From assembly GCF_024700885.2 (NCBI RefSeq), contig NZ_CP117016.1: a stretch of DNA of 64,000 nt. One strand, given 5' to 3'. Below are positions 34,489 through 61,028 of the stretch, piece after piece. The notes under the pieces were generated by a model that was not told the origin of the DNA, ran no database searches, and worked only from the letters and a program-made list of their open reading frames with translations. The translations under genes were made by a program, and so were the position numbers. Position 1 is the stretch's first letter. The number at the start of each line of letters is the position of its first letter. The stretch is from Escherichia coli (lineage in GTDB: Bacteria > Pseudomonadota > Gammaproteobacteria > Enterobacterales > Enterobacteriaceae).

Positions 34489-34748
34489 TCTCCTTTACGG
34501 TGATAACCGTCGCGTAAGCAAAAAATTGCCCCATTTTTTTGGATTCCTCAGCGACAACAACTGTCGATTTTTAGTAAATATCTATCCGGTACGAAGCCCG
34601 GCCTCTTGGTATGAATGATTGGTTTGAAGCAAAAAATAACCGACGCTGATGAAACGTCGGTTTTTAGTCATTTTTTGACAGCGGCGCATTGTGCCTAAAT
34701 GGGGGGGAAATGACAAGAGAATGAGAGGCTTGTCATAATAATTTTTCT

Positions 34749-36630: not shown

Positions 36631-36885
36631 TCAATAATGATAACGACATGCTGCAATGAGCAGTGAATCGTCGGTAACCGCGTATACCAGACGGTGCTCC
36701 TCTGTAATGCGTCGGGACCAGAAACCTGACAAATTATGTTTCAGGGGTTCTGGCTTCCCCTTACCTTCAAATGGCGTTCTGCGGGTATCTTTGATAAGTT
36801 CATTGATCTTTTTAACAATTCGCTTATCTGTTTCCTGCCAGTACAGATAATCGTCCCATGATTCCTCAGACCAGATTAGTTTCAC
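36631..36885 (-). CDS. yoeB: toxin YoeB (ribosome-dependent mRNA interferase)
   Basis: 84 aa, recognised sequence; overlaps yefM stop. Confidence 0.85.
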
Positions 36886-37133
36886 TCAATGATGTCCTTT
36901 TCCGTTCCTTTGCCTGATTTCAGGCTATCGATTGAGTCCATCAATCTCCGGGCGTTAGCGGGGGAGCGCAGTAGATAAGCCGTCTCTTCCAGCGAGTTGT
37001 ATTCTTCGAGTGACATCAGAACACAAGCCTCTCCATTCTGACGAGTAATAAGGATCGGGGCATGATCTTCAACGGCTTTCATCATTGTTGCCGACAAATT
37101 CTGACGCGCTTCGCTGTAGCTAATTGTACGCAT
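36882..37133 (-). CDS. yefM: antitoxin YefM
   Basis: [36 protein letters not shown] recognised; start trimmed. Confidence 0.85.
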
Positions 37134-37164: not shown

Positions 37165-37415
37165 CAATGATGAGCGTTAATTAACTATTTATTAATTAGT
37201 TTGTAGATCAAGGTATTGTCAGTGAGACGAAAATCCAGGCTTCGCTATTTTTGGTGCCATCAGCTTAGAGGACAGTCCTCTTAGCCCCCTCCTTTCCCCG
37301 CTCATTCATTAAACAAATCCATTGCCATAAAATATATAAAAAAGCCCTTGCTTTCTAACGTGAAAGTGGTTTAGGTTAAAAGACATCAGTTGAATAAACA
37401 TTCACAGAGACTTTT

Positions 37416-37466
37416 ATGACACGCGTTCAATTTAAACACCACCATCATCACCATCATCCTGACTAG
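37416..37466 (+). CDS. hisL: his operon leader peptide
   Basis: MTRVQFKHHHHHHHPD with seven consecutive His codons. Confidence 0.85.
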   Translation: MTRVQFKHHHHHHHPD

Positions 37467-37528
37467 TCTTTCAGGCGATGTGTGCTGGAAGACATTCAGA
37501 TCTTCCAGTGGTGCATGAACGCATGAGA

Positions 37529-37565
37529 AAGCCCCCGGAAGATCACCTTCCGGGGGCTTTTTTAT
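37529..37565 (+). terminator. his attenuator terminator
   Basis: GCCCCCGGAAG..CTTCCGGGGGC stem followed by TTTTTTT. Confidence 0.8.
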
Positions 37566-37611
37566 TGCGCGGTTGATAACGGTTCAGACAGGTTTAAAGA
37601 GGAATAAGAAA

Positions 37612-38511
37612 ATGACAGACAACACTCGTTTACGCATAGCTATGCAGAAATCCGGCCGTTTAAGTGATGACTCACGCGAATTGCTGGCGCGCTGTGGCAT
37701 TAAAATCAATCTTCACACCCAGCGCCTGATCGCGATGGCAGAAAACATGCCGATTGATATTCTGCGCGTGCGTGACGACGACATTCCCGGTCTGGTAATG
37801 GATGGCGTGGTAGACCTTGGGATTATCGGCGAAAACGTGCTGGAAGAAGAGCTGCTTAACCGCCGCGCCCAGGGTGAAGATCCACGCTACTTTACCCTGC
37901 GTCGTCTGGATTTCGGCGGCTGCCGTCTTTCGCTGGCAACGCCAGTTGATGAAGCCTGGGACGGCCCGCTCTCCTTAAACGGTAAACGTATCGCCACCTC
38001 TTATCCTCACCTGCTCAAGCGTTATCTCGACCAGAAAGGCATCTCTTTTAAATCCTGCTTACTGAACGGTTCTGTTGAAGTCGCCCCGCGTGCCGGACTG
38101 GCGGATGCGATTTGCGATCTGGTTTCCACCGGTGCCACGCTGGAAGCTAACGGCCTGCGCGAAGTCGAAGTTATCTACCGCTCGAAAGCCTGCCTGATCC
38201 AGCGCGATGGCGAAATGGAAGAATCCAAACAGCAACTGATCGACAAACTGCTGACCCGTATTCAGGGTGTGATCCAGGCGCGCGAATCAAAATACATCAT
38301 GATGCACGCACCGACCGAACGTCTGGATGAAGTCATCGCCCTGCTGCCAGGTGCCGAACGCCCAACTATTCTACCGCTGGCGGGTGATCAACAGCGCGTA
38401 GCGATGCACATGGTCAGTAGCGAAACCCTGTTCTGGGAAACCATGGAAAAACTGAAAGCGCTGGGTGCCAGTTCAATCCTGGTCCTGCCGATTGAGAAGA
38501 TGATGGAGTGA
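37612..38511 (+). CDS. hisG: ATP phosphoribosyltransferase
   Basis: [17 protein letters not shown] recognised; start trimmed. Confidence 0.9.
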
Positions 38512-38516
38512 TCGCC

Positions 38517-40887
<2,371 letters not shown>

Positions 40888-40888
<1 letters not shown>

Positions 40889-41954
40889 TGAGTCAGAAGT
40901 ATCTTTTTATCGATCGCGATGGAACCCTGATTAGCGAACCGCCGAGTGATTTTCAGGTGGACCGTTTTGACAAACTCGCCTTTGAACCGGGCGTGATCCC
41001 GGAGCTACTGAAGCTGCAAAAAGCGGGCTACAAGCTGGTGATGATCACTAATCAGGATGGTCTGGGAACACAAAGTTTCCCGCAGGCGGATTTTGATGGC
41101 CCGCACAACCTGATGATGCAGATCTTCACCTCGCAAGGCGTGCAGTTTGATGAAGTGCTGATTTGTCCGCACCTGCCCGCCGATGAGTGCGACTGCCGTA
41201 AGCCGAAAGTAAAACTGGTAGAGCGTTATCTGGCTGAGCAAGCGATGGACCGTGCCAACAGTTATGTGATTGGCGATCGCGCGACCGACATTCAACTGGC
41301 GGAAAACATGGGCATTAATGGTTTACGCTATGACCGCGAAACCCTGAACTGGCCAATGATTGGCGAGCAGCTCACTAAACGAGACCGTTACGCCCATGTG
41401 GTGCGCAACACCAAAGAGACGCAAATTGACGTCCAGGTGTGGCTGGATCGCGAAGGTGGCAGCAAGATTAACACCGGCGTTGGCTTCTTTGATCACATGC
41501 TGGATCAGATCGCCACCCACGGCGGTTTCCGGATGGAAATCAACGTCAAAGGCGACCTCTATATCGACGATCACCACACCGTCGAAGATACCGGCCTGGC
41601 GCTGGGCGAAGCGTTAAAAATTGCTCTTGGCGACAAACGCGGTATTTGCCGCTTTGGTTTTGTGCTGCCGATGGACGAATGCCTTGCCCGCTGCGCACTG
41701 GATATCTCTGGTCGCCCGCACCTGGAATATAAAGCTGAATTTACCTACCAGCGCGTGGGCGATCTCAGCACTGAAATGATCGAGCACTTCTTCCGTTCGC
41801 TCTCTTACACCATGGGCGTGACGTTGCACCTGAAAACCAAAGGTAAAAACGATCATCACCGTGTAGAGAGCCTGTTCAAAGCTTTTGGTCGCACCCTGCG
41901 CCAGGCCATCCGCGTGGAAGGCGATACCCTGCCCTCGTCGAAAGGAGTGCTGTA

Positions 41955-41955
<1 letters not shown>
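40888..41955 (+). CDS. hisB: bifunctional imidazoleglycerol-phosphate dehydratase / histidinol-phosphatase
   Basis: [18 protein letters not shown]-type N-terminus. Confidence 0.9.
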
Positions 41956-44033
<2,078 letters not shown>

Positions 44034-44040
<7 letters not shown>

Positions 44041-44645
44041 CAGAACAACTACGTCGCGAACTGGACTGGGAAAAAACCGACGGACTTATGCCGGTGATTG
44101 TGCAACACGCGGTATCTGGCGAAGTGTTAATGCTGGGCTATATGAACCCGGAAGCTCTGGACAAAACCATCGAAAGCGGCAAAGTCACCTTCTTCTCGCG
44201 CACTAAACAGCGACTGTGGACCAAAGGCGAAACGTCGGGCAATTTCCTCAACGTAGTAAATATTGCGCCGGACTGCGACAACGACACGTTACTGGTGCTG
44301 GCGAATCCCATCGGCCCGACCTGCCACAAAGGCACCAGCAGTTGCTTCGGCGACACCGCTCACCAGTGGCTGTTCCTGTATCAACTGGAACAACTGCTCG
44401 CCGAGCGCAAATCTGCCGATCCGGAAACCTCCTACACCGCCAAACTGTATGCCAGCGGCACCAAACGCATTGCGCAGAAAGTGGGTGAAGAAGGCGTGGA
44501 AACCGCGCTGGCCGCGACGGTCAATGACCGCTTCGAATTAACCAACGAAGCCTCTGATTTGATGTATCACCTGCTGGTGCTGTTACAGGATCAGGATCTG
44601 GATTTAACGACGGTAATTGAGAACCTGCGTAAACGACATCAGTGA
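44034..44645 (+). CDS. hisI: bifunctional phosphoribosyl-AMP cyclohydrolase / phosphoribosyl-ATP pyrophosphatase
   Basis: 203 aa, last gene of his operon. Confidence 0.9.
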
Positions 44646-45722: not shown

Positions 45723-45867
45723 CATTACCCTAACTGACGGAAATTTCCAAGTCCGCATAGTTTAGCGATAATCCTCGTGAATGCTATAGGATAAGTGATA
45801 AAAATAATGAATTGTTGTGTAAGTAACAAAAGACAATCAGGGCGTAAATAGCCCTGATAACAAGATG

Positions 45868-47043
<1,176 letters not shown>

Positions 47044-47282
47044 TCAGAATTAACTTAACTGTGAATCATGATGTTTTTAGCATCCTGATAAGAGCTAAAA
47101 GTTTTAACGCTACGTTGTTCGATGGTCAACGCAACGAAAAACAATTCAGATTTTCTTTATAAGAATAGCTGATATTTATTAAGTTAATATTAAGCAGTGA
47201 AATTTAGTCTATAAGATATTTGGCAAAAAAAAGCCCGGTGCAATATACGCCGGGCCTCAATTTTATTGTTGGTTAAATCAGA

Positions 47283-48689
47283 TTAATCCAGCCATTCGGT
47301 ATGGAACACACCTTCTTTATCAATACGCTTATAAGTATGCGCACCAAAATAGTCACGCTGTGCCTGGATCAGGTTCGCAGGCAGAACAGCAGCACGGTAG
47401 CTGTCGTAATAGGCAACCGCTGCGGAGAAGGTCGGAACCGGAATACCGTTCTGTACTGCATAAGCAACGACATCACGCAGCGCCTGCTGGTAGTCATCGG
47501 CAATTTGCTTGAAGTACGGAGCCAGCAGCAGGTTAGCGATCTGCGGATTTTCGGCATAAGCATCGGTGATTTTCTGCAGGAACTGCGCACGGATGATGCA
47601 GCCAGCACGGAAAATCTTCGCGATTTCGCCGTAGTTCAGATCCCAGTTGTACTCTTCAGACGCAGCACGCAGCTGAGAGAAGCCCTGGGCGTAAGAAACG
47701 ATTTTGCCCAGATACAGCGCACGACGAACTTTTTCGATGAACTCAGCCTTGTCGCCTGCTGGCTGTGCTTGCGGACCAGAGAGAACTTTAGATGCGGCAA
47801 CACGCTGATCTTTCAGAGAAGAGATATAACGTGCAAACACAGACTCGGTAATCAGCGACAGCGGTTCGCCGAGATCCAGCGCGCTCTGGCTGGTCCATTT
47901 ACCGGTACCTTTGTTAGCCGCTTCATCCAGGATCACATCAACCAGGTAGTTACCGTCTTCATCTTTTTTGGTGAAGATATCTTTGGTGATGTCGATCAGG
48001 TAACTGCTCAGTTCACCGTTATTCCACTCGGTAAAGGTCTGCGCCAGTTCTTCGTTGGTGAGGTTCAGGCCACCTTTAAGCAGAGAATAGGCTTCAGCAA
48101 TCAGTTGCATATCACCGTATTCGATACCGTTGTGAACCATCTTCACATAATGGCCTGCGCCATCGGCACCAATATAGGTAACGCATGGCTCCCCGTCTTC
48201 AGCTACTGCGGCGATTTTGGTCAGGATTGGTGCAACCAGTTCATAGGCTTCTTTCTGCCCACCAGGCATAATAGAAGGACCTTTCAGCGCGCCTTCTTCA
48301 CCACCGGAGACACCGGTACCAATGAAGTTAAAGCCTTCGGCAGAAAGTTCACGGTTACGACGAATGGTGTCCTGGAAGAAGGTATTGCCACCATCAATGA
48401 TGATGTCACCTTTATCGAGATATGGTTTGAGGGAATCAATAGCAGCATCCGTGCCTGCACCTGCTTTCACCATTAACAGGATGCGACGAGGCGTTTCCAG
48501 AGATTCAACAAACTCTTTCACCGTATAGTAAGGAACCAGTTTCTTGCCTGGATTTTCGGCAATCACTTCTTCCGTCTTTTCACGGGAACGGTTGAAAATA
48601 GAGACGGTATAACCACGGCTTTCGATGTTGAGCGCAAGGTTGCGCCCCATCACTGCCATACCGACTACGCCGATCTGTTGCTTTGACAT
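47283..48689 (-). CDS. gnd: 6-phosphogluconate dehydrogenase (decarboxylating)
   Basis: [21 protein letters not shown], 468 aa. Confidence 0.9.
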
Positions 48690-48806
48690 TGTTTACTCCT
48701 GTCAGGGGGTGGTCACCGCGCAAGATATGCGCAGCTTGAAATATGGTATGGATGTTAACTCAGGTTTAGCTTGGGTAGATAGCAGAAGATGTACTTTAGA
48801 CAAGCA

Positions 48807-49205
48807 TCACACGAACGATTTTGCAAAAGAAGGGTCAAATGGCCCCTCCTTAACTTCCACCATAAGAGCACGCGGAGATAGGCATTCGACACTGTGTATA
48901 TCGCCCGGAGAAAACTCCACAATGCTCATTCCAGTATTATCTCCTGCTATAAATTGCTTTATAACCTCACCATTTCTACCATACAAACAAACCTGAAGTT
49001 GCCCCTCCATAACAATGAACATTTCCCACTGATGAGGAAGTTCGTGATAATGCGGTTCAACATAGCTGCCCTTTACTAATGCAATAAGTAAACGCTGTAC
49101 CTTTTCTTGATGCGAGCCGTGCATCATAAGGTGGGAACGTAAACGTTCCGATTGCCCGGCTTGATCATATAATTCGTCGAGTTGGTCATTATCAATTAAT
49201 CGCAT
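48807..49205 (-). CDS. wbuC: WbuC-like cupin protein of L-FucNAc O-antigen clusters
   Basis: 132 aa, last gene before gnd, overlapping the upstream GT stop. Confidence 0.5.
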   Translation of the reverse strand: MRLIDNDQLDELYDQAGQSERLRSHLMMHGSHQEKVQRLLIALVKGSYVEPHYHELPHQWEMFIVMEGQLQVCLYGRNGEVIKQFIAGDNTGMSIVEFSPGDIHSVECLSPRALMVEVKEGPFDPSFAKSFV

Positions 49206-50406
49206 TGCATGCCTCCAACCTCATTTCTATCGTCTGTGCCGCAGACTCAACGGAGAATTGTTCTTTCAACAATATATTCGCCCCCGAACCAAGTTGCCGG
49301 CGCACATCAATATCATGCAACATTAATAGCGCAGATTGACATAATTTATCGTCCTCACCATTGACATGGATTAATCCCGCATTATTTTGATTGACAATGT
49401 CGAGCAAATCATTTCCGGCATTTACGCTACCTAAAATAGGTAGCGACTGAACCATATAGCCTAATAACTTACCAGGAAAATTATGGGAAGAGTGTCTAGC
49501 GGAAAGAGAAAACAAGCCGATATCCATTTCCGACAAAATGAACTTAAATTCATCTTGGTTAACCGAGGGCAAATAGGTGAAATTCGTCAATGCCCACTCA
49601 GATGCTAATGAATTAATTAATTCAACTTCATCCCCCTGGCCAATAAATAGGAAATGAGCTTGAGGATATGCTGCCATGTTTCTCACAAGTCGCATCAAGT
49701 TTGTCATGTCCTGTGCATGACCTATGTTTCCACCATAGAAGAAAATGGTTTTATCCTCTAGGCCAAGTCGCTTACGTAGTGGTATATAATCCTTGGGTAT
49801 GATCGTTGGTGTTAGGGATGCCCAATTACGCAAAACTTCGCACGGATAGCCTTTATTATCTTTCCGAAAAACATCAAGATTCTTATCAGACATAAGTCCA
49901 ATACGATTTGCCTGACGATAAGATATTTTTTCAAAAAGACGAAAGTAGCGTTCTATTGGGGAACCAGCATTAAGCATTCCTGCATCAATTACCCATTGTG
50001 GAAACATATCTCTTAAAATAAGATAAGCAGGACATTGGCAACGAGCTTTAATTTTTTTAACTAAAGGCCCCCAGAATATGGAAGGTGAATAATAAATCAC
50101 CCCCTCAAAGGTCTCTTTTTTTACCCATTTTTTGATGGCTTTCCACGCCCGATAGGACAAAAGCGTTTCATTGACCGCTCGCTGAATTTTACTTACATCC
50201 TTGAGCGGCCCGCTTTTAAAACGCCATGTTTTTACCCCCTGAAAGGTATCAAAAGAAATCTCTTCTTGCATGCCCGTACCAGGAGTAATTACCGTAACAT
50301 CGTGCCCACGCTGGATAAATTCTTGAGCAAGTTCATGAAACATTTTTGCACCAACACGAGTACTGTTGGGCAGGTAATCATCTATGATTAAAGCAAGTTT
50401 CATCAA
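49192..50406 (-). CDS. wbuB: glycosyltransferase family 4 (putative L-FucNAc transferase WbuB-like)
   Basis: 404 aa directly after fnlC. Confidence 0.65.
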   Translation of the reverse strand: MMKLALIIDDYLPNSTRVGAKMFHELAQEFIQRGHDVTVITPGTGMQEEISFDTFQGVKTWRFKSGPLKDVSKIQRAVNETLLSYRAWKAIKKWVKKETFEGVIYYSPSIFWGPLVKKIKARCQCPAYLILRDMFPQWVIDAGMLNAGSPIERYFRLFEKISYRQANRIGLMSDKNLDVFRKDNKGYPCEVLRNWASLTPTIIPKDYIPLRKRLGLEDKTIFFYGGNIGHAQDMTNLMRLVRNMAAYPQAHFLFIGQGDEVELINSLASEWALTNFTYLPSVNQDEFKFILSEMDIGLFSLSARHSSHNFPGKLLGYMVQSLPILGSVNAGNDLLDIVNQNNAGLIHVNGEDDKLCQSALLMLHDIDVRRQLGSGANILLKEQFSVESAAQTIEMRLEACNAIN

Positions 50407-51533
50407 TATTCTTTCCAGACGACTCTCTTAACATAATCTGTGTAAGAGTGAACAATTCTGACAACTTTATCCGACACATTTGGCATGCTGTAATCACTAA
50501 CCTGACGTAAAAGACGGACTTCACCTCGCGGTTGTGTTGCCAGAATATCCAGCGCTTGTAATACGCGTTCACACTCTAACCCCACCATCATGACGGATGC
50601 TTCCTCAAAGCCTTCCGGACGCTCATGCGCTTCCCGGATGTTTACCGCTGGGAAATTCATGATGGATGACTCTTCAGTGATAGTACCGCTATCTGAAAGC
50701 ACAGCTCGTGAGTTCTTCTGCAAGTGGTTATAATCATGGAAACCCAATGGTTTCAGTAGATTTATATTTGAATGAAATTCAATTCCTTGCTCACGGATTC
50801 GGTTACGTGTCCTTGGGTGTGTGGAGACAATAACTGGAAGATTATATTTTTCAGCAACAGTATTTAGAATGTTCGCAAGCTTTACGAGCTGTTTTGGAGA
50901 ATCAACATTCTCTTCACGATGCGCACTTACTACAAAAAACTCACCAGACTGTAGATTCAAACGCGATAGCACATCTGAACCATCAATTTGGGGCATATAA
51001 TATGAAAGAACCTCAAACATAGGGCTACCAGTTTTTATGATCCGATCAGCTGGGATACCTTCAGCCAAGAGATATTCACGAGCAATATCACTGTAGGTCA
51101 TATTGATATCAGCCGTATGGTCAACAATACGTCTGTTGGTTTCTTCAGGCACGCGTTGATCGAAACAACGGTTACCTGCTTCCATATGAAATATAGGCAC
51201 TTTACGGCGTTTGGCCGGAATGGCAGAAATACATGAATTCGTATCGCCCAATACCAGTATTGCTTCAGGTTTTTCGATTTCTAATACTTCATCTACCTTA
51301 ATAATAACCTGACCAATGGTTTCCGCCGCATTTTTACCCGCTGCATTTAAAAAATAATCAGGTTTTCGAACACCCAAGTCATTGAAGAACACTTCATTTA
51401 ATTCGTAATCATAATTTTGACCAGTATGGACAATAATATGCTCGCAGTATTCATCAAACTTAGCAAGAACCCTCGACAAACGGATAATCTCAGGACGGGT
51501 TCCAACAACAGACATAACTTTTAATTTTTTCAT
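50403..51533 (-). CDS. fnlC: UDP-N-acetylglucosamine 2-epimerase (FnlC)
   Basis: 376 aa non-hydrolysing 2-epimerase signature. Confidence 0.8.
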   Translation of the reverse strand: MKKLKVMSVVGTRPEIIRLSRVLAKFDEYCEHIIVHTGQNYDYELNEVFFNDLGVRKPDYFLNAAGKNAAETIGQVIIKVDEVLEIEKPEAILVLGDTNSCISAIPAKRRKVPIFHMEAGNRCFDQRVPEETNRRIVDHTADINMTYSDIAREYLLAEGIPADRIIKTGSPMFEVLSYYMPQIDGSDVLSRLNLQSGEFFVVSAHREENVDSPKQLVKLANILNTVAEKYNLPVIVSTHPRTRNRIREQGIEFHSNINLLKPLGFHDYNHLQKNSRAVLSDSGTITEESSIMNFPAVNIREAHERPEGFEEASVMMVGLECERVLQALDILATQPRGEVRLLRQVSDYSMPNVSDKVVRIVHSYTDYVKRVVWKEY

Positions 51534-52636
51534 TATAGAGGTCTCGCAATAGTATCGGGCTCATCACGGTTGAAAATTTCATTTGCCCAGAGCATGACTA
51601 TTAATTCATCAGTTCCAATATTTGTAATGTCATGTGTCCAACCAGGAACTGTTTCAACAATCTTAAACTCACCCGATGAAACTTTCAGTTCATATCGCTC
51701 ACCGGTAATCACATGTTCAAATTTAAAGCATGCCTGACCTCGAATGACCAAAAACTTCTCATTTTTACTGTGATGGTAATGTCCGCCACGCGTAATACCA
51801 GGGTGAGCAGTAAAAAATGAAAACTGCCCCGCTGAAGGCGTTTTCAACATCTCACAAAAGACTCCGCGGGCATCCCCATAAAAAGGTACCTTGTACGCAA
51901 ACTTCTCTGCTGGTAAATAACTCAGCCATGTAGAATACAATGCACGGGTAAATCCCGCCCCGACAGCCTCTGTGATCAGGGTGGAACGGCTATTTTTGAA
52001 GCTATAAATTAATTCTGCAACTTCACCAACTGTTGTTGAATAAATTGGTGCAACAACTTTATATCCACTTTCAACCGTCCCAGAGAGAAGAGCTATAGCA
52101 TCAGTACAAACATCATCAATATAGACCAGATTGACTGGCGCTGCTGCATCATTGATAGTAATCTCAATATCATTGGAAATATTGTAGCAAAAAGTTGCTA
52201 TAAAAGAATTATAGTTTGGCTTACACCATTTACCAAAAACGTTTGGATATCTGAAAATATAATACGAAGAACCACTAGCAGCAGCATATTTTTCGACATA
52301 GCTTTCAGCTACAGCTTTGCTAACCCCATAAGCATTATTAAGTTCAGCTTGTATCGAAGAACTTAGCATAATTGGTGTATTCTTACCAATAGAAAGGAGA
52401 TACTCAACTATATGCTTTGTTAAATCACTGTTTCCAGAAATAAACTCATCATCAGTCTTAGGTCTATTGATACCAGCTAAGTGATAAATAAAATCGGCAT
52501 CCTGTAAGCCTTGTTCAAGATCTTGCTTCGTTGATTCTCGATCAATTCTAATAAGATCTTTATAACCAAGTTCCTCAAGCCTCAAACATAAATTACGACC
52601 AATAAAACCATTTGCACCAGTAACTAATATTTTCAT
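51533..52636 (-). CDS. fnlB: FnlB-like reductase/epimerase (Cap5F-like)
   Basis: MKILVTGANGFIG Rossmann start; track ORF trimmed. Confidence 0.75.
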   Translation of the reverse strand: MKILVTGANGFIGRNLCLRLEELGYKDLIRIDRESTKQDLEQGLQDADFIYHLAGINRPKTDDEFISGNSDLTKHIVEYLLSIGKNTPIMLSSSIQAELNNAYGVSKAVAESYVEKYAAASGSSYYIFRYPNVFGKWCKPNYNSFIATFCYNISNDIEITINDAAAPVNLVYIDDVCTDAIALLSGTVESGYKVVAPIYSTTVGEVAELIYSFKNSRSTLITEAVGAGFTRALYSTWLSYLPAEKFAYKVPFYGDARGVFCEMLKTPSAGQFSFFTAHPGITRGGHYHHSKNEKFLVIRGQACFKFEHVITGERYELKVSSGEFKIVETVPGWTHDITNIGTDELIVMLWANEIFNRDEPDTIARPL

Positions 52637-52637
52637 A

Positions 52638-53672
52638 TCATGAATCCAGATTATATTTTTCACCAGCACGAATTGCTCGAATAAAGGCTAATTTTAGCAA
52701 GAGCTCTTTCATGCCTTCAACATCTAACCGTTGAGTATTATGAGAGTTATAATCTTCTATTTCAGATATTCGGCTATCACCTTGCTCAACATATTTGCCA
52801 TAATTAAGGTCACGAAGATCTGGCGGGACACGGTAATAATCGCCCATATCTATAGCAGCGATCATTTCCTCACGACTAAGTAGAGCTTCATATAATTTCT
52901 CGCCATGACGCGTTCCAATGACATTTACCGGATGGTCAGGAACATTTAGTAATTCCTTTAAAGCAATAGCTAATGTGTCAATAGTTGCTGCAGGTGCTTT
53001 TTGCACAAAGATATCACCATTATTACCATGTTCAAACGCATAAAGAACTAAATCTACCGCATCCTCAAGAGTCATCATAAAGCGGGTCATATTAGGATCA
53101 GTTATTGTGAGTGGCTTGCCCGCTCTAATAAGATCAACAAATAATGGAATAACTGAACCGCGAGATGCCATAACATTCCCATAACGGGTACCACATATTA
53201 CTGTTTTATTGCGATCAACATTACGGGATTTCGCGACCATGACCTTTTCCATCATAGCTTTTGAAATACCCATTGCGTTAATCGGGTATACAGCTTTATC
53301 AGTACTTAGGCATACAACCCTCTTCACTTCATTCGCTATAGCTGCTTCAAGAACATTTTCCGTACCAAGGATATTAGTTTTAACGGCTTCCATAGGATGA
53401 AATTCACATGATGGAACTTGCTTAAGTGCCGCTGCATGATATATAAAATCAACACCGCGAGTCGCATTCAAAATACTACGGTAATCTCTGACATCACCAA
53501 TATAGAACTTTAATTTTTGATTATTGTATTTTTTCCGCATATCATCTTGTTTTTTTTCATCACGACTAAATATACGGATTTCTGCAATATCTGTATCAAG
53601 AAATCTATTTAATACAGCATTCCCGAAAGAGCCAGTACCACCAGTAATTAACAGTGTTTTAGATGAAAACAT
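52638..53672 (-). CDS. fnlA: UDP-GlcNAc 4,6-dehydratase/5-epimerase (FnlA/CapE-like)
   Basis: TGGTGSFG motif, 344 aa. Confidence 0.85.
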   Translation of the reverse strand: MFSSKTLLITGGTGSFGNAVLNRFLDTDIAEIRIFSRDEKKQDDMRKKYNNQKLKFYIGDVRDYRSILNATRGVDFIYHAAALKQVPSCEFHPMEAVKTNILGTENVLEAAIANEVKRVVCLSTDKAVYPINAMGISKAMMEKVMVAKSRNVDRNKTVICGTRYGNVMASRGSVIPLFVDLIRAGKPLTITDPNMTRFMMTLEDAVDLVLYAFEHGNNGDIFVQKAPAATIDTLAIALKELLNVPDHPVNVIGTRHGEKLYEALLSREEMIAAIDMGDYYRVPPDLRDLNYGKYVEQGDSRISEIEDYNSHNTQRLDVEGMKELLLKLAFIRAIRAGEKYNLDS

Positions 53673-53713
53673 AATAACCGAACCTCAAATCATTGACAAA
53701 TATACTCTGGAAG

Positions 53714-54892
53714 CTATTTACTTACTTGACCTAACTTATTAGTAATTGAACTCTGTCCACTAAGTGTTACTCTATTCAAAAACATATATATAAAAGATAG
53801 AAAGAAATAGCCGTTAGATCCTAAAACTAAACCTTTGGTATTGAAAATTATCCCAATTAACATCCATATAATTGCTTGATATGTCATTCCAAATGTCGCA
53901 ATAGAAATAGTAAAGATTAAAAATAAAAAGAGTGTAATAAATGTTAACCCACCGTAATTAAACAGTATAACCCAGCCCATATCCGAACTTTGTTTAATAT
54001 CGGGGATTGATGAAGATATGTTTTGCTGTAATCCAAATATAATATTAAAAAAATCTAAATTACCTACAACAAACACATGTTGCTGTAATAAGATATCCAG
54101 AGTTCTTGTGCCATCTCCAGAAACGAACTCATCATAAAATCGAGGAAAGAACACTGCTCCTAAGCTATAAACTAAAACTCCCAAAATCAATACTGTTGCA
54201 ATTTTTATATTAATATTAAGTCTAGAGCAACCGATACCAATAATGGCTGCAATCACAGCCATGTTAGAATTTACGATTTGAGTCAGACAAATTAAAGTAA
54301 TTAAAGCATAACGCCTTTTCATCATAAAAAATGACATATAGATCATCAAAAATGGTGTCATGAAATTTATTTCACCCGACAACCCAAATCCTCTTACTTT
54401 AGCATTTTGTTCCCAAAGATTAACAGAGTCAGACATACCAAAGAAAGTATATAACAATCTTTTTAACTCTGGACTTATATACATACCAAAAAAAATAACT
54501 ATTTGAACCCAGAGAGAATACACTAATATTCGCTCCATTAATTTCAAGTCACCCTTTATGAATCTATTTACTAAATAATACGCAGGAACAAATGAAAATA
54601 AAAACAACATAAATAATCTAACGGTAAAATAACTTTGAAAAGAATGGCTTTTTTGAAACAAATCGAAAACCAAACAAAATAAAAAAATAATTATGAATAT
54701 AGATAACAGCAACAAATTTTTACGATCTATAGATACCAATCCATTGCCCATAGTAATCATAAAATTACGCACTAAATACATAATACCAAAAAATGCAGGA
54801 ATAAATGCCAAATATAAGAAAGGTATTATCAGCGACAATCTAAAAAAAACAACAAAAAATAATAAAAAAGCCATCAATGCATTATACTTCAT
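53714..54892 (-). CDS. wzy: O-antigen polymerase (Wzy-like)
   Basis: 392 aa polytopic membrane protein, very AT-rich gene. Confidence 0.55.
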   Translation of the reverse strand: MKYNALMAFLLFFVVFFRLSLIIPFLYLAFIPAFFGIMYLVRNFMITMGNGLVSIDRKNLLLLSIFIIIFLFCLVFDLFQKSHSFQSYFTVRLFMLFLFSFVPAYYLVNRFIKGDLKLMERILVYSLWVQIVIFFGMYISPELKRLLYTFFGMSDSVNLWEQNAKVRGFGLSGEINFMTPFLMIYMSFFMMKRRYALITLICLTQIVNSNMAVIAAIIGIGCSRLNINIKIATVLILGVLVYSLGAVFFPRFYDEFVSGDGTRTLDILLQQHVFVVGNLDFFNIIFGLQQNISSSIPDIKQSSDMGWVILFNYGGLTFITLFLFLIFTISIATFGMTYQAIIWMLIGIIFNTKGLVLGSNGYFFLSFIYMFLNRVTLSGQSSITNKLGQVSK

Positions 54893-54941
54893 TGTTTTTT
54901 ACCTTCCATACAAATGTCTTAATAAATGAAGATAGCATCAT

Positions 54942-55928
54942 CTATATATACCAGTTCTTAAGCAAATCATCTGTTTTTGAGGTGCCACGCTCTCCAATAC
55001 CATGTATATATGCCGAAATCAACACATATCTGTAAAGAATTGGGAAATAGAGTTTTTTATTTGCATCTGTTTTTTTTAAAAATTGTATTATTTTTTTAAA
55101 AATAAATTTATTGAAAAATATTGATTGGCATATTTTACTAAACGTTTTGTGTTTACTAAATATTTTCTCAACTAGGAATAATTTTTTATTAGTAGAAAAC
55201 ATTTCAGGCCTTACTTTGCTTAATACATTCATACCATCACGTGCTGTAGCACGAATTTTTTTTGTATATCCTTCTATATCGCCACTGTATTCGTGATGTA
55301 ATATTTTAAAATCAGCAAAAATAATTTTGAAGTCATTTTTTTCAAGTTGCCACCCAAACTCATGATCTTCACAACCATAACCAATAAAATTTTCATTATA
55401 TGAAACTATACCTGATGAAAATGCCTTTCTATCAAGAACACAATTCATTGCGACAAAAGTCCAGGCATTCATAGAGATATCAGGACTATCACTAAACTTA
55501 GGGTGTAAAGAGTTCCTGTAGCGATAGTAATTGCTGGTCTCAATGAGTTCATTTTCGAATCTAACTTCCCCACATAAAACGCTTTTACTATTCATTTTTT
55601 TTAAATAGTTCAGCAACGATGATATATATCCACTTGCGGGTATACAATCATCATCAAGAAATATTAAATAATCCCCATGGGCTAGGGATGCTCCGAAATT
55701 GCGCTTAGCGGAGAGTATATTTTTAGTATGTTGATGGATAATATTAATATTTTTCTTTTTATGAATATTATCAGCAACTACATCATCAATTTCTTTACCA
55801 CTATGACTATCGGAAACAATTACTTCTAGGTGTAGACTATTGTCTTTAGCCTGAGAATCGAGCTCAGAGAGAATCAATTCTAATTGAACTGGGCGTTTCC
55901 AAACAGATATTATTACCGAGATATTCAT
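54942..55928 (-). CDS. glycosyltransferase family 2
   Basis: 328 aa, LIFLDDDCIP DxD region. Confidence 0.7.
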   Translation of the reverse strand: MNISVIISVWKRPVQLELILSELDSQAKDNSLHLEVIVSDSHSGKEIDDVVADNIHKKKNINIIHQHTKNILSAKRNFGASLAHGDYLIFLDDDCIPASGYISSLLNYLKKMNSKSVLCGEVRFENELIETSNYYRYRNSLHPKFSDSPDISMNAWTFVAMNCVLDRKAFSSGIVSYNENFIGYGCEDHEFGWQLEKNDFKIIFADFKILHHEYSGDIEGYTKKIRATARDGMNVLSKVRPEMFSTNKKLFLVEKIFSKHKTFSKICQSIFFNKFIFKKIIQFLKKTDANKKLYFPILYRYVLISAYIHGIGERGTSKTDDLLKNWYI

Positions 55929-57169
55929 AATTTATGAGGCCTACATACGGTTTTATTTACTTTAATGAATTGTTTAAGCATTCCCATGCCAACGAAAATT
56001 TCAGCTACAATAAGACTCACAATCGCACCCGTTGCTCCATAATATTTACATGCTGGATAAACTATGCTTAAACAAGTAATAGTTCCTAGGAAAATAGATT
56101 TGAAATACTGTTTTTGCATCCCATTAGGTACTAATACAAGTAACCCGACAACTGTATTAAAACCTATGAATATAGGAAGCAATGTCATTAATTGCATTGC
56201 ACCTGCAATTACTTCACCTTTCATGCCGAATATTAATAATGATAATTGGTTGGCAAAAAGTAAAAATGGTATTGCTAAAGCCATGTAAAAAACAAGCAAG
56301 TATTTAAGAATCATTCTAGATTTTAAGTTTGCAATATATGGATTCTCTCTTTGCAAAATGTTAATTCTTGGATAAAAAGCTTGGACTAATGGTGATGCAA
56401 GTCCAGCCAAACCTTGTTTGATCATGTTAGCTGAGTTAAAGATGCCTACATCAAACTTTCCAGATACGCCACCCAATACAAGAGGGGTCAACATTGTGTA
56501 TGCACTAGTCGCAAGTGTTGAACAAAAAAAATGAAATCCATTTTTTAAAATTACTTGAATTTTCTTTATCGGTGGCCTACATAAAAAAATCTCCTTGATA
56601 ATAAGTAAGTAGGCAACGCCACAGAATGAATACAAAATATATGGCATGCTCAATAATAAGGCACTGATGTACATCGGCGTTGCGGGTTTTATAATTAGAT
56701 AAACTGCAACGACTGCTATGCCTCGTGAAAATAGTGACAGCACAGCCATCACACTCATCATTTCCTTACCTTGCAAAAACCAATTTGGATTGAAAACACC
56801 TGCAATTACGGACAGAAAACCAACACATAACAAAGACTTAACGTCGTTAAAAACATAAAAAAAACAGAGTATTATGAGTATTATAGCTGCAATTAGCATT
56901 AATATAAAACGAGCAAGCACCACACCGCAAAAAAATTCAGAATGGTATTTTTTATCGTTATTTAGTGCTATTTCTCTTGTCCCACTATATCCAAAACCAT
57001 ATTCAACAACCATTAACAACACTTGTATAGTTATCAATGAAAAACTCAGATCACCAAAATTCGATACACCAATGACTCTAACAAGATAAGGAAAAATTAA
57101 TAATGGCAGTAGGTAATTGGCACCCTGACTTATTGCAAGGTAAAGAACATTTAGTTTAGTTTTGCTCAA
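55925..57169 (-). CDS. wzx: O-antigen flippase (Wzx)
   Basis: 414 aa, 12-TM polysaccharide exporter; first gene of the cluster. Confidence 0.75.
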   Translation of the reverse strand: MSKTKLNVLYLAISQGANYLLPLLIFPYLVRVIGVSNFGDLSFSLITIQVLLMVVEYGFGYSGTREIALNNDKKYHSEFFCGVVLARFILMLIAAIILIILCFFYVFNDVKSLLCVGFLSVIAGVFNPNWFLQGKEMMSVMAVLSLFSRGIAVVAVYLIIKPATPMYISALLLSMPYILYSFCGVAYLLIIKEIFLCRPPIKKIQVILKNGFHFFCSTLATSAYTMLTPLVLGGVSGKFDVGIFNSANMIKQGLAGLASPLVQAFYPRINILQRENPYIANLKSRMILKYLLVFYMALAIPFLLFANQLSLLIFGMKGEVIAGAMQLMTLLPIFIGFNTVVGLLVLVPNGMQKQYFKSIFLGTITCLSIVYPACKYYGATGAIVSLIVAEIFVGMGMLKQFIKVNKTVCRPHKL

Positions 57170-57237: not shown

Positions 57238-58335
57238 CAGGGCAAGATTACGAAAGCCCGCTCCCCGCAAGAACTGACGCCAGATAGTTTCTGTCCATGG
57301 CTGCTTTTCGCATCTTACGTCTTAACCCTGCCTTGAATACCTTATCATTCGTCAAAATATTAATAGCAATGTGCCGTATCCCTGAAAATAAATCTGCTGC
57401 ATTTCCTCTTCTTATTTTGCAGTCGTCTTCATTCATTACCACGTCCAGACGCCAGTGCAGCTTATTCTCCACGTGCCAGTGGTTTCGGATTGCTGTGGCG
57501 AACTTCTCTGCGGTTAAATCAGCAGAACTGATATAATATCTGACCGTCATTTCTGGCTCTTTCTTTTGTTCTGCTATTATTGACCGAAAGGAGACTGCCA
57601 CGCATAATTTCTTCAGACCTTTCCATTCAAACGTGAAATCAAAAAGTTCATCAGGGACATCGCAAACAATATGAAGACGGATTTCGTCTCTGCCGTGACT
57701 CTTTTCACTCATTGCGTAACTGTCATGCTCTGGATTATTTAATTCTTTCAGTGGAAATTTTTCCTCAAAGGCTTTATTAAGCCGCCCCTGATTTCCTTTT
57801 ACAGCGAATAAATAATCACCGCCCTGTTTTTGTATCTTCTCTGCAATATCTTTCTGGCAACCCATCGCATCAGTTGTGATGATTTTTCCTTTAATATCCA
57901 GCATGTTAAGAAGTTCAGGGATAGCTGTAATTTCATTGGATTTCTCATCCGTCCTGATCTGTCCGATGACCAGACTGTGCATTGTTGAGAACGCACTAAT
58001 GACATGAATCGCTCCCTTGCGGCGACTCTTGTCATAAGAATGCCGGAGTGTTTTTCCATCAATTGCGATGAAGTCTTTATCATCTGAAGAATGGCAGTCA
58101 CGCATCCAGTTAATAAAGCACTCGTGAAATTTTGCAGGACTGATACAGGATACAACTCTGGCAATGGTATCGTGAACAGGAATACCATTTTCAAAATCAC
58201 CATATTGCTTCAAAAAATCGAGATGTGTTTCCCCAAAATCCTCTATATCTTCCCAGCCTTCTGCACCCGAAATAACGGCACAAATAGTCAACAGTAGAAT
58301 ATCCGACAATTTATGTTCCACTTTCCAGGCTTGTC
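57238..58335 (-). mobile_element. ISAs1-family (H-repeat-like) element, outer copy body, interrupted at 58335 by a nested copy
   Basis: Begins with CAGGGCAAGATTACG terminus; 1097-bp periodicity with the next copy; the missing 5' part reappears at 59626-59829. Confidence 0.75.
57248..58321 (-). pseudogene. ISAs1-family transposase lacking its first ~20 codons (split by nested IS)
   Basis: About 95% identical by eye to the intact downstream copy; N-terminal codons found at 59626-59685. Confidence 0.7.
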
Positions 58336-59625
58336 AGGGAAAGATTACGAAAGCCCGCACCCCGCAAGGACTGACGCCAGATAGTTTCTGTCCATGGCTG
58401 CTTTTCGCATCTTACGTCTTAACCCTGCCTTGAATACCTTATCATTCGTCAAAATATTAATAGCGATGTGCCGTATCCCTGAAAATAATTCTGCTGCATT
58501 TCCTCTTCTTATTTTGCAGTCGTCTTCATTCATTACCACGTCCAGACGCCAGTGCAGCTTATTCTCCACGTGCCAGTGATTTCGGATCGCTGTGGCGAAC
58601 TTTTCTGCGGTTAAATCAGCAGAACTGATATAATATCTGACCGTCATTTCTAGCTCTTTCTTTTGTTCTGCTATTATGGACCGAAAGGAGACTGCCACGC
58701 ATAATTTCTTCAGTCCTTTCCATTCAAACGTGAAACCAATAAGTTCATCAGGGACATCGCAAACAATATGAAGACGGATTTCTTCTCTGCCGTGATTTTT
58801 TTCACTAATTGCGTAACTGTCATGCTCTGGATTATTTAATTCTTTCAGTGGAAATTTTTCCTCAAAGGCTTTATTAAGCCGCCCCTGATTTCCTTTTACA
58901 GTGAATAAATAATCACCGCCCTGTTTTTGTATCTTCTCTGCAATATCTTTCTGGCAACCCATCGCATCAGTTGTGATGATTTTTCCTTTAATATCCAGCA
59001 TGTTAAGAAGTTCAGGGATAGCTGTAATGTCATTGGATTTCTCATCCGTCCTGATCTGTCCGTTGACCAGACTGTGCATTGTTGAGAACGCACTAATGAC
59101 ATGAATCGCTCCCCTGCGGCGACTCTTGTCATAAGAATGCCGGAGTGTTTTTCCATCAATTGCGATGACGTCTTTATCATCTGAAGTATGGCAATCTCGC
59201 ATCCAGTTAATAAAGCACTCGTGAAATTTTGCAGGACTGATACAGGATACAACTCTGGCGATGGTATCGTGAACAGGAATACCATTTTCAATATCACCGT
59301 ATTGTTTTAAAAAATCGAGATGTGTTTCCCCAAAATCCTCTATATCTTCCCAACCTTCTGCACCAGAAATAACGGCACAAATAGTCAACAGTAGAATATC
59401 CGATAATTTATGTTCCACTTTCCAGGCTTGTCTGTAATCGGGGATAATAGAAATATGTTCCATCAATTTTTTAAGTTCCATTTTGTTCTCCTTAATTATG
59501 TAAGGAGTATTTGATCATGTATAAGCAATAAAAAACAGCTTTATGTAATGAGGAATATCTCAATTTTTAAACATAAAATGCGAATTGTTTAGTACAAAAA
59601 AGCAGCATTACGTGATCTTTCCCTG
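58336..59625 (-). mobile_element. ISAs1-family element, complete nested copy (1290 bp)
   Basis: Terminal inverted repeats CAGGGAAAGA / TCTTTCCCTG; flanked by the direct repeat CCAGGCTTGT. Confidence 0.8.
58345..59481 (-). CDS. ISAs1-family transposase (H-repeat-associated protein), intact
   Basis: 378 aa, [26 protein letters not shown]... Confidence 0.85.
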
Positions 59626-59837: not shown

Positions 59838-59876
59838 CACGCTACCGCCCCTGGCTTTACAGCTACCAGAGCACTG
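59838..59876 (-). promoter_or_regulatory. JUMPstart element with ops (GGCGGTAGCGTG) for RfaH-dependent antitermination
   Basis: Reverse complement reads CAGTGCTCTGGTAGCTGTAAAGCCAGGGGCGGTAGCGTG. Confidence 0.85.
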
Positions 59877-60134: not shown

Positions 60135-61028
60135 TTATTCGCTTAACAGCTTCTCAATCCCTTTACGGAACTTCGCCCCTTCTTTCAGGTTGCGTAGTCC
60201 ATACTTCACAAATGCCTGCATATACCCCATTTTTTTACCGCAGTCGTAGCTGTCACCTGTCATCAGCATGGCATCAACGGACTGTTTTTTCGCCAGTTCA
60301 GCGATGGCATCAGTCAGCTGAATACGCCCCCATGCACCAGGCTGAGTGCGTTCAAGTTCCGGCCAAATATCTGCAGAAAGCACATAGCGACCAACGGCCA
60401 TGATGTCTGAGTCCAGCGTCTGCGGCTGATCCGGTTTTTCGATGAATTCAACAATGCGGCTGACTTTACCTTCACGGTCCAGTGGTTCTTTGGTCTGGAT
60501 GACCGAGTATTCAGAGAGGTCACCCGGCATACGTTTTGCCAGCACCTGGCTACGGCCCGTTTCATTGAAACGCGCAATCATGGCAGCAAGGTTGTAGCGC
60601 AGCGGGTCGGCACTGGCGTCGTCGATCACAACGTCCGGCAGTACCACGACAAATGGATTGTCACCAATGGCGGGTCGTGCACACAAAATGGAGTGGCCTA
60701 AACCTAAAGGTTCGCCCTGACGCACGTTCATAATGGTCACGCCCGGCGGACAGATGGACTGCACTTCCGCCAGTAGTTGACGCTTCACGCGCTGTTCAAG
60801 GAGAGATTCTAATTCATAAGAGGTGTCGAAGTGGTTTTCGACCGCGTTCTTGGACGCGTGAGTTACCAGGAGGATTTCTTTGATCCCTGCAGCCACAATC
60901 TCGTCAACGATGTACTGAATCATTGGCTTGTCGACGATCGGTAGCATCTCTTTGGGAATCGCCTTAGTGGCAGGCAACATATGCATCCCAAGACCCGCTA
61001 CAGGAATAACTGCTTTTAAATTCGTCAT
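60135..61028 (-). CDS. galF: UTP-glucose-1-phosphate uridylyltransferase regulatory subunit GalF
   Basis: [32 protein letters not shown]; start trimmed. Confidence 0.85.

Follow-up and report, generated by a model that had tools for sequence, protein, structure and literature searches.

The DNA analysed here, a stretch of 64,000 nucleotides from Escherichia coli (the window), carries at positions 37416-37566 of the plus strand a very short open reading frame with a run of histidine codons, followed by a hairpin that ends in a run of T. The locus raises the question of whether these two parts act together to control entry into the histidine operon, as in ribosome-mediated attenuation, or whether they lie side by side without any functional connection. 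The his leader ranks among the founding cases of both transcription attenuation and hairpin-dependent polymerase pausing. Our analyses identify the interval as the hisL leader together with its attenuator, through which translating ribosomes control transcription of the E. coli histidine operon, a reading that we hold with a probability of about 97%.

The open reading frame at 37416-37466 (+) reads ATG ACA CGC GTT CAA TTT AAA CAC CAC CAT CAT CAC CAT CAT CCT GAC TAG. Its translation is MTRVQFKHHHHHHHPD, 16 codons followed by the stop codon TAG, and the identical sequence is annotated in RefSeq as the hisL leader peptide gene (WP_001364200.1 / b2018). Seven consecutive His codons (CAC CAC CAT CAT CAC CAT CAT) occupy 37437-37457 (+). 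When both strands of the 64-kb window were searched for at least five CAY codons in a row, this run was the only one found, and by simple arithmetic ((1/32)^7 × 128,000 positions) a seven-codon run would be expected about 4 × 10−6 times by chance. A weak Shine-Dalgarno-like sequence, GAGA (37407-37410), can be read 5 nt ahead of the hisL ATG. In the published model, the His codon run is the sensor of the system, at which ribosomes stall if charged tRNA-His is scarce (PMC4046918).

Between hisL and hisG, both folding and the Rfam consensus place an intrinsic terminator, the attenuator proper (E:F), at 37525-37566 (+). The hairpin itself, 37525-37563, consists of GAGAAAGCCCCCGGAAG, the loop AUCAC, and CUUCCGGGGGCUUUUUU, with a stem of 17 pairs and a calculated free energy of −30.8 kcal/mol. 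A T6 run (37558-37563), followed by ATT, lies at the end of the 3′ arm, and this G+C-rich hairpin with its U run ends 49 nt before the hisG ATG (37612). The 151-nt interval as a whole folded with a minimum free energy (MFE) of −68.4 kcal/mol, compared with −35.1 ± 3.9 kcal/mol for 200 dinucleotide shuffles (z = −8.5), none of which folded as well. A simple scan of the window for hairpins with a T tail nevertheless missed the E:F terminator. The likely cause is that the stem is prolonged by A-U and G-U pairs as far as the T run, so that the scan would find no unpaired T tail to recognize. Because the stem extension probably uses up the T run in this way, the silence of the scanner was rejected as evidence of absence, and other negatives of the same scan should be read with the missed his terminator in mind.

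The identity of the element was examined by comparison with known sequences. The Rfam family His_leader (RF00514) matched 37442-37565 with a score of 131.6 bits, against a gathering score of 49 (E = 1.4 × 10−21), and the match covered model positions 1-126 of 126, so that it was not truncated. Over positions 37188-37640, the window was identical to K-12 MG1655 save for two SNPs, at 37266 and 37608, both of which lie outside the element; from the promoter region through the terminator, identity was 100%. At 37608 the window has G where K-12 has C, in the bases that separate GAGG (37599-37602), the Shine-Dalgarno sequence of hisG, from the ATG at 37612, and the window allele is common to many E. 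coli genomes. At 37266, 150 bp upstream of the hisL ATG, the window has T where K-12 has A. In K-12 this position belongs to a perfect 9-bp inverted repeat, GCTAAGAGG...CCTCTTAGC (window 37262-37284, +), located between the yefM and his promoters, and the T for A substitution breaks one pair of the repeat in the window. The 341 bp around the element were 100% identical to many E. coli chromosomes, in which they are annotated as hisL, 'His leader region' and hisG. Among complete E. coli genomes, the 151-nt element was present in 5423 of 5426, with at least 99% identity in 5085.

The leader is followed on the same strand by an intact operon, hisG-hisD-hisC-hisB-hisH-hisA-hisF-hisIE, spanning 37612-44645. 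Gene coordinates were obtained from the open reading frames of the window and from the RefSeq annotation of strain MLI114, in which hisL and hisG coincide with those of the window at an offset of +28999; positions 41000-64000 of the window are 100% identical to this strain, and over its whole length the window matches an E. coli of serotype O15. All genes lie on the plus strand: hisG (37612-38511), hisD (38517-39821), hisC (39818-40888), hisB (40888-41955), hisH (41955-42545), hisA (42545-43282), hisF (43264-44040) and hisIE (44034-44645). Upstream, the neighbours closest to hisL are yefM-yoeB and yeeZ, which are encoded on the other strand. A preliminary description of the locus, made from its sequence, had reported a 16-codon leader with seven consecutive His codons, a strong GC-rich terminator hairpin with a T-run, and a 'classic attenuation control, intact'. 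Translation of 37416-37466 bears out the first of these, and the 17-bp stem of −30.8 kcal/mol with its T6 run the second, while identity to the experimentally studied K-12 MG1655 locus and the complete his operon downstream uphold the third. The boundaries that it gave, 37416-37566, proved accurate to the base.

These data also bear on the possibility that the His codon run and the hairpin are unrelated, the hairpin either having arisen by chance or serving a neighbouring gene as an ordinary terminator, with no translation of the short reading frame. The weakness of the GAGA Shine-Dalgarno sequence of hisL would fit such a reading, as would the fact that simple promoter and terminator scans were empty at hisL. 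However, the hairpin cannot serve yefM-yoeB or yeeZ as a terminator, given their orientation, and a seven-His run is hardly to be expected by chance in the window (about 4 × 10−6). In addition, 55 species have kept the open reading frame together with the stems and their overlapping alternative pairings just ahead of hisG, the RF00514 score is far above its threshold, and published genetics show that hisG transcription needs leader translation (PMC4046918). Taken together, context, conservation and the Rfam score all but exclude a chance association of the open reading frame with an independent terminator, and we give it next to no credence. The two parts are better regarded as a single attenuator.

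An attenuator, as opposed to a terminator behind a short open reading frame, should contain alternative pairings that depend on the position of the ribosome. The check by RNA folding that the preliminary description had proposed was therefore run, and the helices A:B, B:C, C:D, D:E and E:F were all found to exist and to share segments. The A:B hairpin, supported by folding and by the Rfam consensus structure, spans 37449-37484 (+) with −11.8 kcal/mol. B:C, the first hairpin of the antiterminator state (37466-37493, +), pairs GUCUUUCAG (37466-37474) with CUGGAAGAC (37485-37493) at −12.1 kcal/mol. C:D (37485-37508, +), found by folding and in Rfam, pairs CUGGAAGA (37485-37492) with UCUUCCAG (37501-37508) at −12.6 kcal/mol. 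The antiterminator D:E (37499-37544, +) pairs GAUCUUCC (37499-37506) with GGAAGAUC (37537-37544), reaching −16.7 kcal/mol with inner pairs included. Its downstream strand, 37537-37544, occupies the loop-proximal half of the 5′ arm of the terminator together with three of the five loop bases. Neighbouring helices are mutually exclusive because they have a segment in common.

To simulate the response of these helices to translation, the RNA lying 3′ of the ribosome footprint was folded stepwise as the polymerase moved forward, in a simplified thermodynamic model. Without a ribosome, A:B and then C:D formed and both persisted, which left E free, and E:F formed. When the A site held His codon 10 or 12, B:C formed at once as C emerged (−12.1 kcal/mol), and for a ribosome on the His codons the combination of B:C and D:E was the MFE structure just before F emerged (−28.8 to −29.0 kcal/mol). 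With the ribosome at the stop codon, B was covered and C:D formed first (−12.7 kcal/mol); once E was exposed, the MFE drifted to D:E, with −18.4 against about −16 kcal/mol. In every state, equilibrium folding favoured the terminator once at least 8 nt of F were exposed. Folding of the whole transcript to its equilibrium MFE with a masked ribosome was also tried and was set aside as misleading, as it produced implausible long-range pairs behind the ribosome and always favoured E:F.

Since equilibrium folding alone does not reproduce the switch, the decision of the attenuator must be kinetic. Direct-path refolding barriers were estimated for the transitions from C:D to D:E and from D:E to E:F, and both came to about 15 kcal/mol, a rough value obtained by a heuristic search on simplified structures. 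At 37 °C, and with any plausible prefactor, barriers of this height correspond to refolding times of minutes or longer. The polymerase crosses the T run in well under one second. Refolding would be slower than transit of the polymerase, so that the helix formed first should decide the outcome. Once D:E has formed, the emerging F strand would be left with no place to nucleate. Within the limits of the model, the alternative antiterminator pairings are thus present and respond to the simulated ribosome position, as predicted for an attenuator and beyond what a mere terminator would display.

Initiation and pausing were considered next to the folding. A putative his promoter could be recognized by eye at 37348-37377 (+), with a −35 element TTGCTT (37348-37353), an 18-nt spacer and a −10 element TAGGTT (37372-37377), preceded by an A/T-rich stretch at 37330-37344. 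We take TTGCTT and TAGGTT to be the hexamers assigned to the his promoter of Salmonella/E. coli, presumably in the work of Riggs 1986 and of Da Costa & Artz 1997; a literature search for TAGGTT as a his promoter element gave no result. Each of the two hexamers matches the consensus at 3 of 6 positions. The consensus promoter scan of the window did not find the his promoter, because both hexamers match the consensus poorly; as the his hexamers are known for their weakness, this negative, too, was not read as absence of a promoter. Transcription probably starts at about 37385. This position was chosen as +1 because the numbered features of PMC10989985 then land on the right bases, as checked for boxes at +46-56, +126-134 and +187-195 and for G127/U128/G129. 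The same numbering gives a 5′ untranslated leader of 37385-37415 (+), and a start 7 nt downstream of TAGGTT is consistent with the placement of the promoter.

The hisL pause has been described as having a hairpin between −30 and −11 and the consensus G-10 Y-1 G+1 (PMC9291695). In the window, the his pause hairpin is the apical part of A:B, CCUGA-CUAGUCUU-UCAGG (37458-37475), with an 8-nt loop. A check of the sequence placed the pause site at 37477-37487 (+), with the RNA 3′ end at U37486, G-10 at 37477, Y-1 at 37486 and G+1 at 37487, and with an 11-nt spacer from the end of the hairpin to the site. At the level of sequence, the pause signal of the window is intact and matches that description. 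The pause falls as synthesis of segment C begins, which is the right place for the ribosome to catch up before the choice between B:C and C:D. Two additions to the preliminary description follow from these observations: the functional unit probably extends upstream of 37416-37566, to a promoter and a start near 37385, and the interval itself also holds the pause signal.

These elements can be assembled into the following mechanism. Transcription would begin at about 37385, and the polymerase would pause at U37486 behind the A:B pause hairpin, where it would wait for the ribosome on hisL to draw level. A shortage of charged tRNA-His would make this ribosome stall at 37437-37457 and cover segment A, so that B would be free to pair with the emerging C, and D in turn with E. 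D:E, seated on the nucleation half of the 5′ arm of the terminator, would make E:F come too late, and the polymerase would read through into hisGDCBHAFI. When tRNA-His is plentiful, the ribosome would reach the TAG and cover B, C:D would pair and E would stay free; the E:F hairpin and the U run would then form, and transcription would stop at about 37563-37566. With the ribosome at the stop codon, C:D would be held kinetically only. If the leader were untranslated, A:B, C:D and E:F would form, and transcription would terminate as well. The published Salmonella/E. coli model has translation to the stop codon leading to E:F and termination, stalling in the His run leading to B:C and D:E with read-through, and absence of translation leading to A:B, C:D and E:F with termination, and the anatomy of the window matches it point for point (PMC4046918). 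Stalling, pausing, termination and read-through are themselves known from the literature (e.g. PMC4046918, PMC9291695). With the control region and the operon intact and wild-type, this O15-type E. coli should control its histidine biosynthesis just as K-12 does.

To view the element across related species, species-representative genomes were searched in one pattern scan for seven His codons followed by Pro-Asp-stop. The scan returned 76 loci, all from Enterobacteriaceae or unclassified MAGs; the pattern restricted retrieval to Enterobacteriaceae, placing the leaders of Yersinia, Vibrio and Pasteurellaceae outside the sample. Alignment was carried out on the 55 distinct, complete leaders among these loci. 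The His run was kept in 55 of the 55 other leaders, a circular result since the search pattern required the run. In the leader of Trabulsiella odontotermitis TbOT1.10 (L059, 1191-1345), an in-frame 9-nt insertion gives ten His codons (CAC CAC CAT CAT CAC CAT CAT CAC CAT CAT), with the downstream stems unchanged.

Across the 55 leaders, the paired segments were nearly invariant, and variation was concentrated in the C:D loop, the terminator loop and the D-E spacer; the C:D loop (37493-37500), for example, varies among species, whereas the C:D stem does not. Downstream of the stop codon, columns that pair in one or the other state were invariant in 61 of 83 cases, compared with 4 of 19 for unpaired columns (Fisher p = 3 × 10−5, a value that overstates independence, as the leaders are phylogenetically related). 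Standard pairs made up 99.5% of the cells in the terminator state and 97.6% in the antiterminator state, and 100% of the cells of A:B and B:C. When partners were slid as a control, 37-55% of cells were paired, in a comparison biased by the fact that one of the aligned sequences had supplied the structure. No pair was changed on both sides in the 55 leaders, and covariation was uninformative because the stems are almost invariant. The sole common substitution in segment C, A37489G (16 of 55 leaders), leaves C:D with G-U in place of A-U and B:C with U-G in place of U-A, and is thus legal in both states. Near-invariance of this kind is to be expected where most segments must pair with two partners.

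The MFE folds of the untranslated RNA contained one further helix, which stands outside the five-helix model. It is a predicted long-range helix of 7 bp (37423-37522, +) between GCGUUCA (37423-37429) and UGAACGC (37516-37522), joining leader codons 3-5 to the D-E spacer; the His_leader model of Rfam is without it. In the 55 leaders, 99.2% of its cells were paired and all changes were compatible with G-U pairing. GCGUUCA was kept while the encoded residues varied, with T/S/K/N/I/V at position 2, R/S at position 3, and shorter MCV/MSV forms. The his leader RNA was reportedly drawn as a tRNA-His-like fold by Ames et al. in 1983, and we take the long-range helix to be, probably, the closing stem of that fold. 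It might be argued from this that the five-helix model is incomplete, and that a sixth helix, selected at the RNA level, closes the untranslated leader into a tRNA-His-like fold and provides an additional regulatory input. We regard this extension as doubtful. If true, the input could consist, for example, of recognition by a tRNA- or DnaA-type binding protein, or of a 'super-attenuation' of uncoupled transcripts.

A bolder proposal would let the terminated leader RNA, about 180 nt long and able to take up a tRNA-His-like fold, also work in trans: besides its role in cis, it might serve as a small RNA or draw off tRNA-binding proteins as a decoy. The conserved 7-bp closing helix in 55 leaders, the retention of GCGUUCA despite residue changes, and the resemblance to tRNA-His noted in the literature would all be in keeping with it. 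Against this, the shallow alignment held no compensatory changes and only single changes compatible with G-U, and the helix may just as well do no more than strengthen termination when the leader is untranslated. A role in trans seems very improbable.

A further layer of control has been suggested for the same RNA. In 2023, a 'DnaA-dependent riboswitch' was proposed for E. coli his (PMC10989985), in which DnaA would bind rDnaA boxes in the leader RNA and block both the ribosome and D:E pairing, and so favour termination; this would be added to the classical mechanism. The rDnaA boxes named in that paper, when mapped by their published positions, fall at 37430-37440, 37510-37518 and 37571-37579 (+) of the window. 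The proposal draws on genetic and RNA-immunoprecipitation data (PMC10989985), four of four named boxes were found at exactly the reported positions, and box 1/2 and box 3 were well conserved in the 55 leaders. Their conservation can be explained otherwise, however, as box 1/2 is coding and box 3 overlaps the 3′ extension of D and the long-range helix. Each box has 2 mismatches to a degenerate 9-mer. When sites with at most 2 mismatches were counted on both strands of the 196-nt leader, 7 were found, compared with 3.4 ± 1.9 in shuffled sequences (P ~0.05), and 9% of window tiles of the same size hold at least 7. The excess of DnaA-box-like sites in the leader over chance was thus not significant by shuffles or by window tiles, and three equally good sites were left unnamed by the authors. 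They report enrichment by RNA immunoprecipitation in vivo but no DnaA binding in vitro, and themselves do not regard direct binding as established (PMC10989985). At the level of sequence, the 'DnaA box' argument for the his leader is barely above chance. We consider a DnaA layer unlikely, and read the leader as an attenuator governed by the ribosome.

Several features of the wider window were recorded alongside the his locus. The yefM-yoeB toxin-antitoxin pair (36631-37133, −) lies between yeeZ and hisL, as in K-12. In strain 720632, yefM-yoeB is absent, the gap between yeeZ and hisL is 427 bp, and the his leader is identical; the pair is thus subject to a presence/absence polymorphism adjoining the his promoter. 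The enterobacterial sRNA STnc240 was matched in Rfam at 34629-34703 (−), just downstream of yeeY, with 68.2 bits against a gathering score of 55. An O-antigen cluster of O15 type occupies 45741-57169 (−) and comprises wzx and wzy of the 'O15 family', fnlA, wbjC, wecB, a GT4 glycosyltransferase and wbuC. The genes gnd, ugd and wzzB border the cluster at one end, galF and the colanic-acid genes wcaM and wcaL at the other. A JUMPstart element (59838-59876, −) lies downstream of galF (60135-61028, −). Between JUMPstart and wzx (55925-57169), the first O15 O-antigen gene, are two adjacent transposase genes of the ISAs1 family (57248-59481, −); the annotation of an identical genome marks one of the two as partial. 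Placed between the O-antigen antitermination signal and the O-antigen genes, the ISAs1 copies could have an effect on O-antigen expression.

The element may finally be set beside the systems that it most resembles. On his genes of Firmicutes/Actinobacteria, T-box riboswitches couple tRNA-His charging to the choice between terminator and antiterminator (PMC9413887). Unlike the his leader, they bind uncharged tRNA directly, without a leader peptide or a ribosome, and no T-box family reached its Rfam gathering score in the window. The leaders pheL, leuL, thrL, ilvL and ivbL share with hisL the tandem regulatory codons, a pause and alternative hairpins, but differ in their codons and sequences. 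The pauses of leuL, pheL and thrL have been compared with that of hisL (PMC9291695).

E. coli trpL shares the principle: like the his leader, it has a leader peptide with cognate codons and mutually exclusive hairpins chosen by the position of the ribosome. Its pause hairpin synchronizes ribosome and polymerase, as does that of his (PMC9291695). The his leader of the window differs from it in having seven His codons, six segments and a chain of five alternative helices. trpL contains two Trp codons and four segments (1:2, 2:3, 3:4), and the trp operon also has a repressor; E. coli is not known to have one for his. The closest system is hisL of E. coli K-12 and Salmonella enterica (RF00514, b2018), with the same peptide, segments A-F, pause site and downstream operon. 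Compared with K-12 MG1655, the window has no difference inside the element, only the two nearby SNPs at 37266 and 37608. The his leader and attenuator of the window is therefore one already known in full, canonical and ordinary.
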